Shown here piece by piece: positions 1,494 to 42,390 of a DNA stretch of 64,000 bases. The position numbers and the translations under genes are program-made. The stretch spans positions 448,001-512,000 of the forward strand of contig CBDBGZ010000009.1 in the NCBI GenBank assembly GCA_965205425.1, read 5' to 3'. The notes beneath the pieces are model-generated. The model saw only the letters and a program-made list of their open reading frames with translations, made no database searches and was not told the origin of the DNA. Each line of letters begins with the position of its first letter. Position 1 is the first letter of the stretch. This stretch comes from Nitrosopumilus sp. Lineage in GTDB: Archaea > Thermoproteota > Nitrososphaeria > Nitrososphaerales > Nitrosopumilaceae.

Positions 1494-2812
1494 CAGTAGA
1501 TGGGAAAGTACATCAAATTACACATTCTAGAAAATAATTATTTTTGTTATTTCTAAAGTAATGAATAATTATCTTTACAAAGAAATATTTGAGAATTTCA
1601 ATTGATATTATTGGTTTGTGATTTTGTACATTAGTTTCTTCTGAGATAATCAAATTAGCAATTATCCATGCATTGTACAAAATCAATGAATAGTAAAAAT
1701 ACAACAATCTTATGGATTGGTTTGAACTGGTGGTTTTTGGTCTGAACCTTCCCACACATGCATATCCTGTTTCAATTCCCCAACGTTTCTTGTAATCAGT
1801 TGGAATGTTTTGTATGTTATATGATATTTCTTTTGGTGAAACGTTTGTTGCAAACACAACATACTGATCAATAATATTTGATTTTTTTCTTGCATTTTTG
1901 TTTGGTAGAATAACTAGATTAAATGATTCTACATGTCCTGATGATGATTTTATTGTGTATGGCGAGATTGACTTTCTATCTCCATTAACGTATTGTAAAA
2001 TGGCATCTTTGATTCGAGAATTCTTTTTTGCAGGCATTAGAAATTTCAGATTCTTTTGTTTTATTTCTGAAATTGTTCCAGCTGTGAAAAACTCCCTATC
2101 CACTAGCAATAGTTTAATCTTGATTCCATTATTGATGCCATCAGAGAGTAATTTACGCACAAAACCGGCATTTGATATGTTGTCATACAAAGGATAACAA
2201 CCTAGTTGAGCCCTGATTCTTTTTTCAACGCACTGCATGGTGCAGTAACTCTCAAAATGAGTAGTACTGTTTTTTGATTTTGATTTTATTAAAGAATGGT
2301 TTGGCAATTTGTCATATCTTGGGATTAGATGTTTGTCAATTGCCACAGTAACTGGTTGCTCCAATACTCCCAATTCTTGTAATTTTGATACTGTACTATC
2401 CAGTGAACGATGTAATTGAATTTGCATTGTTTTTTGTGATATTTTTGATATGATTTTTCTCAACCATGAACCAGTTGGAGAATGATTCTGGGATTCCATT
2501 GCCAGTCTCTTTAATCCAGATTCAGAATATGAATTTCCCAAACACAATGACATGATAGAATTATGTGCGTCTGCATTGTGGAACCGTGAGTTATTTTTAC
2601 TAGAGCATGGAAACAACAAGATATTGTACATTATTTTAGTGATAATCTCAAATGCTTTAGATAGTATCACGCCTTGGTGTGTCATGGTATCAAATGAAGT
2701 ACAATGCATATTTGATGGAGTGACATACTTTCATCAAGCTTTTTCTATCTGAATAGATTGATTGAATAATTGATAGTTTTTGATCTAAATTGAGTTACTT
2801 TCCCATCTACTG
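1494..2812 (-). mobile_element. ISH3-family (IS4-like) insertion sequence, copy 1
   Basis: 17-bp perfect IR CAGTAGATGGGAAAGTA at both ends; 5-bp TSD AACAT (1489-1493, 2813-2817). Confidence 0.85.
1513..2709 (-). CDS. ISH3-family DDE transposase
   Basis: VAID, LLVDREF and YKKRWGIETGY (YREK-like) motifs; fills the element. Confidence 0.85.
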   Translation of the reverse strand: MHCTSFDTMTHQGVILSKAFEIITKIMYNILLFPCSSKNNSRFHNADAHNSIMSLCLGNSYSESGLKRLAMESQNHSPTGSWLRKIISKISQKTMQIQLHRSLDSTVSKLQELGVLEQPVTVAIDKHLIPRYDKLPNHSLIKSKSKNSTTHFESYCTMQCVEKRIRAQLGCYPLYDNISNAGFVRKLLSDGINNGIKIKLLLVDREFFTAGTISEIKQKNLKFLMPAKKNSRIKDAILQYVNGDRKSISPYTIKSSSGHVESFNLVILPNKNARKKSNIIDQYVVFATNVSPKEISYNIQNIPTDYKKRWGIETGYACVGRFRPKTTSSNQSIRLLYFYYSLILYNAWIIANLIISEETNVQNHKPIISIEILKYFFVKIIIHYFRNNKNNYFLECVI

Positions 2813-3672
2813 AACATCAAATTCATTAATACTACCTTGTTTGTTAATTCTCGTTCCTTCACATAAAAGATAATCAAGATTTTCTAATCCACATTTATCA
2901 ACAAAATTTTGACTATTATTAGGATTTCTTCCATGAAATCTAATATCAGCCGTATATCCAATATCACCTTCAGAAGTATGAATCAAAAATCCAAATACTC
3001 CAGGTAATGAATGATCAATGGGTATTGATTCAACAGTTATTGAATCAAATTTTAGTTCTTTTGAAGGATTAATAATTTGAATATTCCTATCAATCTCGTC
3101 TCTATGCTCAGGATTTTTTGCTCTACTATATTCTCCTTTAGAATTTTTATACATTTTAAAATTTTCTTTGTAAGTAATGTATTCTTCATCGCCACCCATA
3201 TCTTGAAAGCCTTGCATGATTAACTTACTTGCACTAGAACAATAAATTGGAATTTCAGGTCTCAGATAATGTATATATGCACAATGATCAACATGTGCAT
3301 GAGTTAATAAAACTCCATCAACTTGAGTTTCTTCATTATAATCACCATATCCCATATGTTTTGAATAATCTTTACGATAAATTCCTTTAACATCAGGTAA
3401 TAAATCAAATTCAAACAAATCCCCAAACCCATTTAATTTTCTCGGATTCATAAATTCTGCAAAATATTGATTTACTTTGCCCATCTGCATCCCAAAATCA
3501 AGAAAAACTTTAGTATCTTTATCTTTGAGTAAAATTTTATTTCCTCCGATTTCATTTATGCCACCATAAAATGTTAGAGATACCATAGAGATATGATAAC
3601 CACCTATAATAAAAAATAGATTATAAAAATAAACAATCAATATTTCTTGTTATAAAAAAATATTTGATAATA

Positions 3673-34363: not shown

Positions 34364-34441
34364 TGGCGCCCTCGGCGGGATTTGAACACGCGTCTCAGCC
34401 GTGACAGGGCCGAATTCTAGACCGGGCTATACTACAAGGGC
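34364..34441 (-). tRNA. tRNA-Asp(GTC) with encoded CCA
   Basis: GCCCTTG/CGAGGGC acceptor; anticodon loop CTGTCAC; TTCAAAT T-loop. Confidence 0.93.
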
Positions 34442-34662: not shown

Positions 34663-35586
34663 TCATATCTTCTGATTCATTATTTGAAAGACATAAAGAG
34701 ATAGGCCTTGTAGAAACCATGATAAAATAACAAAATCTAATTTTCTAATCCTGTAAGCATTGTATGCAATTAACCTGTACAACATCTCATTGTCCTGAGT
34801 TGTAACATTTCTTGATGTGACATCTCCTGACATTATCTGTTTGATCACAAAAAAGATTGTTTCGGATTTGTTTCTCTGATGGTACAATTGTACAGGAAAG
34901 TTCCTCTTCATCTCCTTTCTATGAATTCCACTGGTTCTGTAAATTGGAACTGTTCCATATCGAGTTGGAATTATTGCAGCTGTGTTGATCTGTTCTGCAC
35001 CAACATGGTTATTCTCATCATCAAAACCCATGTCACCTAACACAATATCAACTGGAACAATATTGTTGGTTTTGTACAACAATGGCAGAAAATCAGGATT
35101 ATCATGTTGCATGTTGTGGTGTGTCATGACACAGCAAACAAGCTGTGTATTCATGTCAGCACAAACAACAACTTTTAGGAAATTCCTGCGTAACTGTACT
35201 CTTTTTGTATAATAGTATGATGCTGTACTGTAACTGAATCCGCTACCATCAATTCCAGCTAGAACCAGTCTGACTTTTTTGTACAAAATGAATTCCTGCA
35301 ACATTTTATGTAACAGATTTCCTTCCAGTCTTGCAGCTGCCTTTTGTAGTGTGGTGTAATGTGGAATGGTATACAAACCAAGATATTCCTGAATTCCTAC
35401 ACATTCTTCTAAAAATTCTGTAAATCTTCTATAACTCTTTGATTCGTACTGTCGTATTGTCAAGAGTATGAGATGTGTCCAAACAGAATAGATATGATTT
35501 GATTTTGGATGTAAGAACCTAGGAATTCTGCATCTGATGATTATATTGAGTAGTGTTTTGCACATTTTGACGTATGATGAGACCAT
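34663..35586 (-). CDS. IS5-family transposase
   Basis: IPHYTTLQK, GIDGSGF, LGDMGFD, YHQRNKSETIFFVIKQ. Confidence 0.9.
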   Translation of the reverse strand: MVSSYVKMCKTLLNIIIRCRIPRFLHPKSNHIYSVWTHLILLTIRQYESKSYRRFTEFLEECVGIQEYLGLYTIPHYTTLQKAAARLEGNLLHKMLQEFILYKKVRLVLAGIDGSGFSYSTASYYYTKRVQLRRNFLKVVVCADMNTQLVCCVMTHHNMQHDNPDFLPLLYKTNNIVPVDIVLGDMGFDDENNHVGAEQINTAAIIPTRYGTVPIYRTSGIHRKEMKRNFPVQLYHQRNKSETIFFVIKQIMSGDVTSRNVTTQDNEMLYRLIAYNAYRIRKLDFVILSWFLQGLSLYVFQIMNQKI

Positions 35587-35635
35587 ACTGTAATCTGCAA
35601 ATACAATCCTAATGGATCTAAATTAGCTAAAATGT

Positions 35636-35837
35636 ATCCATGTGAATTGTTTTTATACATTTCTTCTCTTTTCATACATCAGGGCATGGCTTTCGCTAGA
35701 GAATGGTTTCAATCAAAAGATGCGGACATGTATCCATACGAGACTATTCTCTCAATGCTATCTTCATCCTAGTTAGGATTGTTCGCAGTTATCAGACGAG
35801 GCCTTGTCCCTCAAAAACTCTAACGCGACTTGCAGTC
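35636..35837 (-). ncRNA. candidate bridge RNA/seekRNA region of the IS110 element
   Basis: Structured non-coding region; ATGTATCCAT at 35728-35737 equals the element end at 35632-35641; AAAGAT at 35716-35721 is the reverse complement of the other end at 36950-36955. Confidence 0.65.
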
Positions 35838-36830
35838 CTAACTATAATTTTGCACAAATTCTCTCCTCTCCTTTAGCATCCAATATATGACACGCAATAA
35901 CTTTGATGCACCAGCTACTGCAGCTTTGGATGATCCTCTTTTCTTTTTAATGCGATTGTAAAATTTTGTAATGTCGCTATCTGGTGCGTATCTAACATGT
36001 GCATGAATTGCCTCCACTAGCAACCATCTTAGCATGGTGCTTCCTCTCTTTGTAATTCTTCCGTGATGTATTGTATCTGCAGAATTTCTCACCGATGGAA
36101 CAATCCCTGCATATGCACATAACTTGCGAGAATTTGAAAATCTACTAATCTCTGCAATTTCTGAGAATATGCTCAATGCAGTGTATGGTCCAACTCCAGA
36201 TATTGATGTCAAAATACACACGTCAGGATTATCATTTACCATGCGACGTATCATGGAATCTATTTTTGCAACCTCCTTTTTGTGAAATTTTATGCTTTGT
36301 AGGTACGAATCTATTCTATAACTCTCCAATTTTCCAAGTGCACGTATGTGTTCTGAGGAAAATGGTGTTGCTTTGATATGGATTCCCTCCTGTAGTGTAA
36401 TACCATGTATGGAATTCTTCATCTTTACAATGATGCGCACAATCTTGTGTCGATGTCTTACAAGCTGTCTGTATTGCACAATTGTGTGATCTGGCACGAA
36501 TGATTCTGCAATGTATCCTCCTCGTAGCAAATTTGCAAGATGGTACGCATCAATTTTATCAGTCTTTTTGAGTGATGATGCTATTATCTTTGTGTTGTAT
36601 GGATTAGATAGTATAACATCAAGATGTAATTTGTCTGTCATGTGTCTGTACAATCCATACCAGACAGATGATGACTCTAAAACATATTTTGCGTTCTTTG
36701 GAATTTTGGATGTAATTTTGCTAATAGCAGAAAAATCACTGGAAATCTTTTTGTTAAATAATAATTTGCCAATCTCATCTACTGCTGCCACCTGTACAGA
36801 GTTCTTGTGAACATCCAATCCTACAAACAT
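35838..36830 (-). CDS. IS110-family DEDD recombinase/transposase
   Basis: FVGLDVHK, VLESS, KTDKIDA, AYAGIVPSVRNSA, GRITKRGSTMLR; start placed at MFVGLD (ORF extends to 36929). Confidence 0.93.
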   Translation of the reverse strand: MFVGLDVHKNSVQVAAVDEIGKLLFNKKISSDFSAISKITSKIPKNAKYVLESSSVWYGLYRHMTDKLHLDVILSNPYNTKIIASSLKKTDKIDAYHLANLLRGGYIAESFVPDHTIVQYRQLVRHRHKIVRIIVKMKNSIHGITLQEGIHIKATPFSSEHIRALGKLESYRIDSYLQSIKFHKKEVAKIDSMIRRMVNDNPDVCILTSISGVGPYTALSIFSEIAEISRFSNSRKLCAYAGIVPSVRNSADTIHHGRITKRGSTMLRWLLVEAIHAHVRYAPDSDITKFYNRIKKKRGSSKAAVAGASKLLRVIYWMLKERREFVQNYS

Positions 36831-37183
36831 CAAATATTTTTTTTCAGGAAGGGTAGTGTGTTTGTTTGCATTTCTTACTTTCTTGATACGAATGCAAGTA
36901 CCATCTAATTTCCTAGCTGATTTTGGCACATATGGTTATGGTTATAGTTATCTTTATGTTGTAGGATGTGATGACATTGATTTTTCAAATCCAGATTCAA
37001 CGATTTGGATTTTTGAAATGAGTCAATGGAAAGCCGGTGCCATACCAAAAAACACTACGGACATTTATGGAGACAATACAGGTAAACAAAATAAATTTAT
37101 TGTTTATCGTGAATATATGGAAGAAATTAGTGTTGAAAAATTAAGAGATTTGGTTGATTCTCACTGGAAAGAGTTTGAATGAG

Positions 37184-40135: not shown

Positions 40136-42307
40136 TTAATTATCTGGGCAACCGTCTTCATCTTGGAAACCATCATAATCTTCAGGATCAAGTGGACATA
40201 GATCCTCATCATTGATAATATCGTCTAAATCATCATCGTGAACAAATCTCTGTTGTTCTGGAGCAGTGTCAGGGCAACCGTCATGATCATTGTATTTGTT
40301 CCAGGTTTCAGAGTTTGTTGGACAAGCATCAATAGCATCATAATATCCGTCACCGTCAGTATCAGGTCTTGTAGGAGTTGTAGACTCTGCTGCTAACACA
40401 TCTGGGCAACCATCCCAATCAAGATATCCATTAAAGTTCTCTTGTTCATCTAGACATACATCTTTTCTATCATCTATTCCATCACCGTCAATATCTGCAA
40501 ATAAGTAAGATGAGGCAACAGTGGTGGTAGAATCAGGACAACCGTCTTCATCTTGATAGAAATTATAAGTTTCAGGTTCTAATGGACATGCATCAGAGAT
40601 ATCAACAATTCCATCTTGATCAGAATCGGTTGTAAAAACTAGTTTATCTGGACAGCCATCTTTATCTTGGAAACCATTGAATGTTTCAGGTTGAGCAGGA
40701 CAAGAATCTGAAATATCAGGAATTCCATCACCGTCAGAATCTACTGTGAGTTTGTTATCAGGAATTAGATCTGGACAACCGTCAGAATCTAGATATCTAT
40801 TGTAAGTCTCCCTAGCATTTGGACATTGATCAACATTATCGGTAACACCATCAAAATCAGCATCACCAAATGAATCATATGCTAAAGTGTCTGGGCAACC
40901 ATCATCATCTTGGAAACCATTGTATCTTTCAGCTAGTGTAGGACATGAATCATATTCATCTGGGATGCTATCATAATCAGAGTCAGGTAAAGCAGATTTT
41001 GAAAATCCTGCAATGTCAGGACAACCGTCAGTATCTAAGAAATCGTTATAATTTTCTGGTTCATCAATACATTGATCCCATCTATCATCAATTCCGTCAC
41101 CATCAACATCTGGAAATACGTAAGAGGAAACAATAGAACCAGATGAATCGGGACAACCATCACCATCTTTAAAGAAATTATAAGTTTCAGGTTCTAACGG
41201 ACATGCATCAGAGATATTTAAAATTCCATCTTGATCAGAGTCTAAAAGAGAATCATAACTGTCTGGGCAACCATCAGAATCTTGGAATCCATTATACGTT
41301 TCTGGTTGGTTTGGACATAAATCTAGATTATCAACAATTCTGTCACCATCTGAATCATATGTAACAGAATTGTCTGCTACTAAATCAGGGCAACCATCAT
41401 CGTCTTGGAATAAATTGTAAGTTTCTTTGGAATAAGGACATACATCAAATTGATTTAAAATTCCATCACCGTCAGAATCACCAGTTATTGAAAATTCAAT
41501 TTCATCTGGACAGCCATCATCATCTTGGAATTTGTTAAAATTTTCACGTTCCAGCGGACAGGCATCTACAGAATCAAGAATACTATCATAATCAGAGTCA
41601 ATCAAGCCATCAGAATCTGCACCGAGTGTATCAGTACAACCGTCCCAATCTAAGAAACCATTATAATTTTCAGGCTCATTTAGACATTGATCCCATCTAT
41701 CATCAATTCCGTCACCGTCAGTATCAGGAAATACGTAAGATGAATCAACTGAATCAACATTATCAGGACAACCATCAGAATCTAAGTAAAAGTTGTAAGT
41801 TTCAGGTTCTAATGGACATGCATCTACAGAATCAGAAATTCCATCTTGATCATTGTCTCTCAATGTAGAATCATCATCAGGACAACCGTCTTTGTCATCA
41901 ATTCCATTGAATGTTTCTGGTTGGTTTGGACATAAATCCATGAAATCTGGATAACCGTCACCGTCAGTATCAGCAATTCCATCTGAACCTTCAGGGGATA
42001 AATCTGGACAACCATCATCATCTTGGAATTTATTGTAATTTTCTTTTACAGTTGGACAGTTATCTATATGATCTTGAATTCCATCATAATCAGCATCATA
42101 CCATGGGACAAAGTCTGCTGGACAACCATCTATGTTGTTACCATATTCTGAATCATAATCTTCTAAGAGATGAGGACAAAAATCAAGATTATTTGGAACT
42201 CCATCATTATCAGAGTCAATTTCCTCATTAGCAAATACACTACTTGGCATCATGCCAATAGTTGATGTTAGTAAAAGTAAAAATCCTAAAAGATATTGTT
42301 TTTTCAT
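40136..42307 (-). CDS. secreted thrombospondin type 3 repeat protein
   Basis: Signal peptide MKKQYLLGFLLLL; many DxDGDGIxDxxDxCP..E..NxxxDxDGCPD repeats. Confidence 0.92.
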   Translation of the reverse strand: MKKQYLLGFLLLLTSTIGMMPSSVFANEEIDSDNDGVPNNLDFCPHLLEDYDSEYGNNIDGCPADFVPWYDADYDGIQDHIDNCPTVKENYNKFQDDDGCPDLSPEGSDGIADTDGDGYPDFMDLCPNQPETFNGIDDKDGCPDDDSTLRDNDQDGISDSVDACPLEPETYNFYLDSDGCPDNVDSVDSSYVFPDTDGDGIDDRWDQCLNEPENYNGFLDWDGCTDTLGADSDGLIDSDYDSILDSVDACPLERENFNKFQDDDGCPDEIEFSITGDSDGDGILNQFDVCPYSKETYNLFQDDDGCPDLVADNSVTYDSDGDRIVDNLDLCPNQPETYNGFQDSDGCPDSYDSLLDSDQDGILNISDACPLEPETYNFFKDGDGCPDSSGSIVSSYVFPDVDGDGIDDRWDQCIDEPENYNDFLDTDGCPDIAGFSKSALPDSDYDSIPDEYDSCPTLAERYNGFQDDDGCPDTLAYDSFGDADFDGVTDNVDQCPNARETYNRYLDSDGCPDLIPDNKLTVDSDGDGIPDISDSCPAQPETFNGFQDKDGCPDKLVFTTDSDQDGIVDISDACPLEPETYNFYQDEDGCPDSTTTVASSYLFADIDGDGIDDRKDVCLDEQENFNGYLDWDGCPDVLAAESTTPTRPDTDGDGYYDAIDACPTNSETWNKYNDHDGCPDTAPEQQRFVHDDDLDDIINDEDLCPLDPEDYDGFQDEDGCPDN

Positions 42308-42390
42308 TCTCTCTGACTCCGCTATTATCAAGTATTTATTAAGTCTCACGTTAAATAGATTCTTTTAAAATTAAAAACTAGCCAATCCGG

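Follow-up and report, generated by a model that had tools for sequence, protein, structure and literature searches.

Layout and ends of the element

Within the window, the whole 64,000-nucleotide stretch of DNA that was analysed, positions 35636..36949 of the minus strand hold a 1314-bp IS110-family element with an IS1111-like layout. Its uninterrupted reading frame (35838..36929, minus strand) encodes a 363-aa IS110 transposase, a DEDD recombinase with a GTG start that is matched by PF01548 and PF02371 and scores 241 bits against NF033542 (cut-off 140). The protein has the DEDD RuvC-like domain and the PF02371 domain with a catalytic serine that define the IS110 family, and alignments located D39, E85, D124, D127, and S283. 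The records that contain its close relatives are labelled Nitrosopumilus or Nitrosopumilaceae, and a match at E 1e-40 was found in 37 of the 301 family genomes searched. The nearest plasmid matches are haloarchaeal IS110 proteins (33–38%), and similarity to IS621 (E 9e-7) and ISCro4 (E 7e-8) is weak. The element extends 20 bp upstream of the reading frame and 202 bp downstream of it, and the 20-bp left end does not hold the RNA upstream of tnp that marks the narrow, IS621-like IS110 group. Its short left end, its 202-bp right region, a predicted RNA in which the top-strand match comes first, and co-varying sub-terminal repeats would place the element near the IS1111 group.

We took the ends from comparison with the many sister copies in the element's own genome, which are 95–98% identical to it. 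The aligned copies diverge directly after CACATGGAT and just before T-AACYAT, so the predicted bounds are 35636 and 36949; the left end is uncertain by one base because the T at 36950 is common to element and target. All 11 right ends of the window element's type in this genome stop at ...CACATGGAT (35636), and the bases that follow are AATT in six cases, AAAT in two, and AATC, AACT, and ACAT in one each. The same comparison places three AACYAT units at the left end (36932..36949, minus strand); ordinary relatives have one, and copies of type C, a sibling described below, have two (11/12) or three (1/12). The left sub-terminal inverted repeat, ATGTG (36927..36931, minus strand), overlaps the GTG start codon, and the right end reads CACAT-GGAT (35636..35644, minus strand), the right sub-terminal repeat plus the terminal bases. 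Inverted repeats of this kind, which start ATGTG/CACAT, are 4–9 bp long in 23 end pairs, reach 7 bp in 11 of the 23, and co-vary among families; in the window copy, which has extra AACYAT units, the repeat is 5 bp. At ends with one unit, the position of the repeats fits that of the IS1111 group. Empty target sites in relatives and in the element's own genome, where empty copies of several sites are present, show insertion at T^ without target duplication, sometimes with the loss of one base.

These ends differ from those of the original prediction, which proposed a 4-bp ACAT core at both ends. The strings that it quoted are present where it placed them, and ACAT occurs on both sides of the window copy. 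In the sister copies, however, ACAT follows only 1 of 11 right ends, AAAGAT precedes the AACYAT units at 1 of 12 left ends, and ACATAAAGAT followed by the element start was found at none of the 12 left ends (26 bases examined, own genome). The orthologous empty site in two relatives identifies the AAAGAT-like sequence as chromosome, and the ACAT on the right is part of a neighbouring IS5 element, of which 24 intact copies carry the same site. Because the sister copies define different ends, the ACAT core was rejected, and the junction ATGGATACATAAAGAT that was built on it is therefore wrong; a circle of the window element would instead join ATGGAT to AACTAT. No junction of abutted ends was found in the assembly or in the contigs of runs X1–X5, and contigs drop rare forms.

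The right end likely encodes a two-loop guide RNA

The bridge/seek mechanism has been published for bacterial IS110 and IS1111 elements, and the 3′ end of the window element likely encodes a two-loop RNA of this kind, the predicted guide of its DEDD recombinase. We aligned 35 homologous 3′ regions as two repeats of stem, arm, hairpin, arm, and stem. In the resulting five-helix model, 92.5% of cells were paired, compared to 34–45% in slid controls, and the helices carry compensatory changes, with 18 of 25 pairs changed on both sides. The enclosing stem proposed originally was paired in 54.9% of cells in the same 35 homologues, and the AGGAUG/CAUCUU pairing, as aligned, in 67%, a value that 49 of 500 shuffles reached. 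The fold of the single sequence is no more stable than that of shuffles (z 0.35), and the minimum-energy fold recovers some helices yet also pairs the arms. Rfam has no family for this RNA; its sole threshold pass was the neighbouring tRNA gene (window 34367–34441), which lies ~260 bp beyond the IS5 element.

The predicted target-binding domain (35772..35842, minus strand) is closed by a 7-bp helix (35836–35842 with 35772–35778) and contains the target loop (35784–35827). The 5′ target arm, UUAGAGUUUU (35814..35823, minus strand), is complementary to the top strand of the right flank, and the 3′ target arm, UCUGAU-AAC (35788..35796, minus strand), has the same sense as the left flank and ends in AAC, which matches the left end of the element. 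The 5′ donor arm is AUAGCAU (35755..35761, minus strand), and the 3′ donor arm is UAUGGAUACAU (35728..35738, minus strand), whose AUGGAU part equals the right end. The least conserved stretch of the RNA is the 5′ arm of the first loop, at 34–71% per column.

Pointing out of the right end is a TATA-box-like motif, TATAAAAA (35650..35657, minus strand), and 33 of the 35 homologues have a similar motif 20–23 bases from the right end. The distance from this box to the GTG start would be ~30 bases on a circle with one AACYAT unit, a typical archaeal spacing, and is 42 bases for the window copy. We infer that the motif is a circle-junction promoter.

Guide arms co-vary with target flanks and element ends

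A regular-expression parse of all loci and of the element's own genome gave 103 matches with 75 distinct sequences. After one spurious match had been dropped, 8 of the 74 remaining records had no parsable target loop, and the co-variation set comprised 66 sites and 26 guide clusters. Locus L227 (G320) was left out, and the metagenome loci, which are mostly distant, added few parsable elements. Right ends were located by their own motif, independently of the guide, a register of 0–2 bases was allowed alike for cognate and control pairs, and the left flank of type C was set to include the host's first AACYAT unit.

Across the 26 guide clusters, the 5′ arm matched the right flank at 6.1 of 8 positions in cognate pairs and 3.9 in non-cognate pairs; it ranked its own site first in 19 clusters and ninth or worse in 5. 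The 3′ arm matched the left flank at 3.6 of 5 positions in cognate pairs and 1.7 in others, and the cognate match was best in 11 of 19. None of 20,000 permutations reached the score of either arm, with p-values that are overstated because guide clusters are related. One clear case is the G039 family (7.6/8), in which all 15 parsed sites (G039, L031–L044) lie at one base in the end of a miniature element, and the right junction occurs in two registers, depending on whether one T is retained; L097 (10/10) and L047 (9/9) are further clear cases. In L043 (about 1640–1730), the targeted miniature element is itself inserted in the donor loop of one copy's RNA. In L061 (about 2589–3336), the RNA region occurs two or three times within a short distance; one of these copies is inverted, and one has no parsable target loop. 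Family B (55% protein identity), found at C2:54607, C5:28, and C5:1392 of the window's own genome (G000), has UUAAACACAU as its 5′ arm and is followed by ATGTGTTTAGGTC, a repeat that occurs nine times in that genome.

In the second loop, the hairpin is followed by six donor-arm bases that are identical to the terminal six of the element at 56 of 59 right ends, including changes among ATGGAT, ATAGAT, and ATGAGT, a co-variation that comes mostly from one G/A change. For most of 47 elements, an AUAG donor arm goes with an AACTAT left end and an AUGG arm with AACCAT. A structured RNA with loops that co-vary with the target flanks, and with a loop that matches the element's own ends, is characteristic of bridge and seekRNAs, and this RNA has both. 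The first loop would read the target, with its 5′ arm paired to the right flank's top strand and its 3′ arm to the left flank's bottom strand, and the second loop would read the ends of the element.

The original prediction fared unevenly against these data. It correctly named an IS110 element with a recombinase gene of a Nitrosopumilus-type archaeon and an RNA encoded downstream of the reading frame, and its choice of AUGGAU as a donor guide agrees with the co-variation seen at 56 of 59 right ends, even with the ends redrawn. Its 10-nt match, AUGGAUACAU (35728–35737), does equal 10 bases across the right junction, of which 6 nt are donor and 4 nt are flank of the window copy. Most of the rest of its map did not survive: AUCUUU was not borne out as the right donor guide, and the proposed target guide, CUAGGAUG, overlaps a helix strand in which its GGAU is 96% paired. 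In favour of the older map, there is weak co-variation between the right flank and the four bases that come next after AUGGAU (2.42 compared to 2.19 expected, p 0.011, 39 groups); this tracking also fits handshake pairing as set out in the accessible part of PMC11208158. With the end comparisons above and the poorly paired stem, we regard the older map, in which each end has an ACAT core, AUGGAUACAU and AUCUUU guide donor recognition, and CUAGGAUG guides target recognition, as extremely improbable.

The window copy joins flanks from two loci

On the right, the window copy borders a multi-copy IS5-family element (34704..35635, minus strand) that lacks its first 36 bp and, with them, its left inverted repeat. 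On the left it borders chromosomal DNA: the orthologous site is empty in two relatives (G015 and G036) and continues there with AACATTTTG. Because one flank is IS5 and the other is chromosome in these relatives, the two come from different loci. The left locus continues at C9:1144809, where a further, oppositely oriented copy of the element lies 76 bp away; this placement (G000 C9:1144810–1144886) suggests a large rearrangement between copies. On the IS5 side, the flanks in five relatives are too rearranged to reconstruct the order of events.

The IS5 element has GGCCTTGTAGAAACCAT inverted repeats, 9-bp target duplications, and >20 near-identical copies. In the headless copy, the ATG follows the IS110 right end at a distance of 50 bp and lies ~64 bp from the outward-pointing TATA-like box of the IS110 element. 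The reverse arrangement, with IS5 inserted in the left end of an IS110 copy, occurs at C5:229378–230343 of the same genome. On the other side of the element, the window encodes a 737-aa protein (40136–42349) with many Asp-rich DxDGDG...DxCP repeats and a signal-like N-terminus, which we take to be thrombospondin type 3-like.

The odd right junction, at which the element meets the headless IS5, might be an error of assembly in which two repeats were wrongly joined. High-copy repeats lie on both sides, the reciprocal junction between the IS5 left end and IS110 was not found in the assembly, and no contig extends across the joint by 31 bases in both directions. However, the joint shares only GAT, one 55-nt contig of run X3, which may be the source sample, crosses it without difference (27 and 28 bases), and the IS5 site fits the arms of the family (left 4/5, right 6–7/8). 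We consider an error at this joint very improbable.

The window copy fits its own arms at 6/8 on the right flank and 2/5 on the left. Its 5′ arm, UUAGAGUUUU, scores 6 on each of its own original sites and reaches 6.5 at the site of a sister (C9:1146196); the sister arm UUAAAAUGCU scores 7/8 on both original sites of the window copy. Eight sister RNAs in this genome have four different 5′ arms on an almost unchanged scaffold, and variant bases at 35815–35821 appear in contigs of 3 of 4 public runs. The misfit of the window arm may reflect action in trans or an exchange that followed insertion. At another site, L052 and the copy at C9:88011 of the window's genome share the right flank and have different 5′ arms (7.5/8 for L052, 5.5/8 for the own-genome copy), hinting at guide replacement after insertion.

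A left-end-targeting sibling and the probable hybrid origin of the window copy

Type C, in the same genome, has the same transposase as the window copy and a different RNA. Its target arms, UUUUCACAU and AAACUAU-AACC, give the left-end sequence AACYAT^ATGTGAA that related elements carry. A pattern search found 13 copies of type C in 3 of 151 genus genomes. A host element, recognised by its start sequence ATGTGAATAA, comes after every one of the 13, and at least one extra AACYAT unit precedes all 12 copies with a visible left end. The own left end of type C reads ATGTGCC, with two mismatches to its arm. Because four different host start sequences occur next to type C, there were several insertion events, although some C-host pairs may have moved as units; the 13 copies are not 13 independent events.

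Type C might instead reach sibling left ends by ‘half-match’ recombination through the donor loop, rather than by programming of the target loop. Its donor arm, AUGGAU-AUGUG, also spells its right junction, and donor-only recognition and tandem growth appear in those parts of two preprints that were available (10.64898/2026.08.31.748434; 10.64898/2026.08.14.744561). Both target arms of type C match the site independently, however (7.1/8 for the 5′ arm and 4.8/5 for the 3′ arm), type C is complete at both ends and sits at the same base, and family B, which has the same donor arm and a different target loop, goes elsewhere. We regard donor-loop recombination as an improbable route for type C, and target-loop programming as the better account.

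Comparison of the window copy with type C and with a host element of type H revealed two segments. Over nt 1–960, it matches C at 950 positions and H at 569; over nt 1081–1314, it matches H at 224 of 234 positions and C at 153. Judged by these matches, the window copy is a chimera, with its transposase from the left-end-targeting sibling and its RNA from the host element, and the switch from C to H falls in a mosaic zone at 35871..35976 (minus strand). The word ‘intact’, as originally applied, suits the reading frame, but the element combines sequence from two relatives and lies between flanks that did not originally belong together. Seven full chimeras were examined (six in this genome, and L052), with at least four switch patterns. 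In the window's own genome, 4 of 4 H-type starts follow a right end of the C/B kind, and six AACYATATGTGAA ends, which are family B ends, are free.

The simplest path to such a chimera is probably that C inserted into H and that the two genes then crossed over within their conserved 3′ portion. A second passage, excision at the outer junction, or slippage may account for the third AACYAT unit. An RNA-guided element of the same kind could also have become mosaic by gene conversion between dispersed copies, with the third unit added by slippage. The switch zone of the window copy is patchy (H, then C, then H again), flanks have visibly been exchanged among copies, and 6-bp units slip easily. Intact C-host tandems nevertheless exist in the same genome, where one crossover gives the exact product with two units, and every visible type-C left end is already in a host, so that gene conversion, too, would start from such a tandem. 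We consider conversion between dispersed copies unlikely, and assign a probability of roughly 0.82 to the reading that the window copy is an RNA-guided element and a hybrid of two relatives, formed once a left-end-targeting sibling had entered a host element and recombined with it.

By analogy with known IS1111 biology, the element would form a circle in which the right-end TATA box comes to lie upstream of the GTG start. With the target read by the first loop and the ends by the second, it would insert at T^ as seen at the empty sites. Type C, with arms that spell the left end of related elements, sits exactly there. Recombination in the conserved 3′ part of the genes would then fuse the gene of C to the RNA of the host, with the first 6 bp of the host remaining as an extra AACYAT unit. 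Later exchange between copies may explain why the flanks of the window copy derive from two loci and why its target arm suits the site of a sister. The more general proposal, an RNA-guided insertion sequence that is programmed against the left ends of its own family, parasitises each host copy, and captures the host's guide RNA by recombination, seems to us somewhat better than an even bet.

Comparison with known systems

The closest counterparts are the IS1111 seekRNA elements ISEc11, ISKpn4, ISPa11, and ISPst6. According to the accessible part of PMC11187229, these elements share with the window element a long non-coding region downstream of tnp, a top-strand match before the bottom-strand match, sub-terminal repeats that at one-unit ends of the archaeal family also lie ~7 bp in on the left and 3 bp in on the right, insertion without target duplication, the G-x-x-P----S motif, and natural reprogramming of the guide. 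The window element differs in its archaeal host and in its shorter repeats (4–9 bp compared to 11–13, or 7–17 in the portion of PMC11208160 available). It also has a TATA-box-like motif rather than a −35/−10 junction promoter, a start codon inside the left repeat, and a separate, readable donor-matching loop; the window copy is a protein/RNA chimera; and, unlike the IS1111 elements, one lineage of this archaeal family matches the left end of its own family. With the IS621 bridge RNA, as the accessible sections of PMC11208160 and PMC11208158 present it, the predicted RNA shares a target loop and a donor loop, both internal, an invariant crossover T, and arm extensions (AAC here) that, like handshake guides, fit the partner DNA once strands have been exchanged. 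In contrast to IS621, the RNA is in the right end, the order of the arms is reversed, and there is no conserved 2-bp core duplicated on both sides.

Many targets of this family lie in other repeats. Guides aimed at a fixed site in a mobile element have parallels in IS4321 and IS5075, which enter the inverted repeats of Tn21, and in ISEc21, which enters IS3 elements, as far as the available extracts go. Type C differs from these in aiming at its own family, at the left end, and in forming head-to-tail pairs able to swap RNA and protein. Tandem or expanded IS110 loci, in the available portions of 10.64898/2026.08.14.744561 and 10.64898/2026.08.31.748434, resemble the loci described here in their tandem modules, rearranged flanks, and lack of target immunity. 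The joints in those loci are one-sided donor matches, whereas here both target arms match the end of the sibling, and the partners in C-host pairs are different elements with ~55% protein identity, unlike half-match tandems.

Further prior literature includes PMC13626964, 10.1101/2025.10.25.684509, and PMC12288879, each available in part. In the literature covered, which leaves out most subscription papers, ISfinder, and supplements, we found no report of an IS110 or IS1111 guide aimed at sibling left ends, whether or not with RNA capture; the same literature gave no report of an archaeal junction promoter. Nor did we find a description of this archaeal family, including in the accessible part of PMC13343696; Supplementary Table 5 of PMC11208160 may list archaeal members. 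What is new here is the chimera, with its unusual family-internal targeting and RNA swap; the mechanism itself is known.

Implications

Publication of the basic mechanism in bacteria limits the surprise of finding it here. The archaeal bridge/seekRNA scaffold, fully mapped and with 34 natural target-arm variants and their sites, provides a rule set for reprogramming, and could be used to test register and handshake rules in the IS1111-like branch. If type C does parasitise its own family, its outward TATA box would sit just upstream of the host start codon, guides and proteins would be swapped routinely, and the left end would keep a 6-bp AACYAT tally of each passage. This would be a natural route of retargeting, in which archaeal recombinases accept foreign bridge RNAs. 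Guide change in nature may run by hypervariable arms among near-identical sisters, and also by swaps of whole RNAs between elements of ~55% protein identity, which bears on the orthogonality of recombinases. The element may offer a compact integration tool for ammonia-oxidising archaea.
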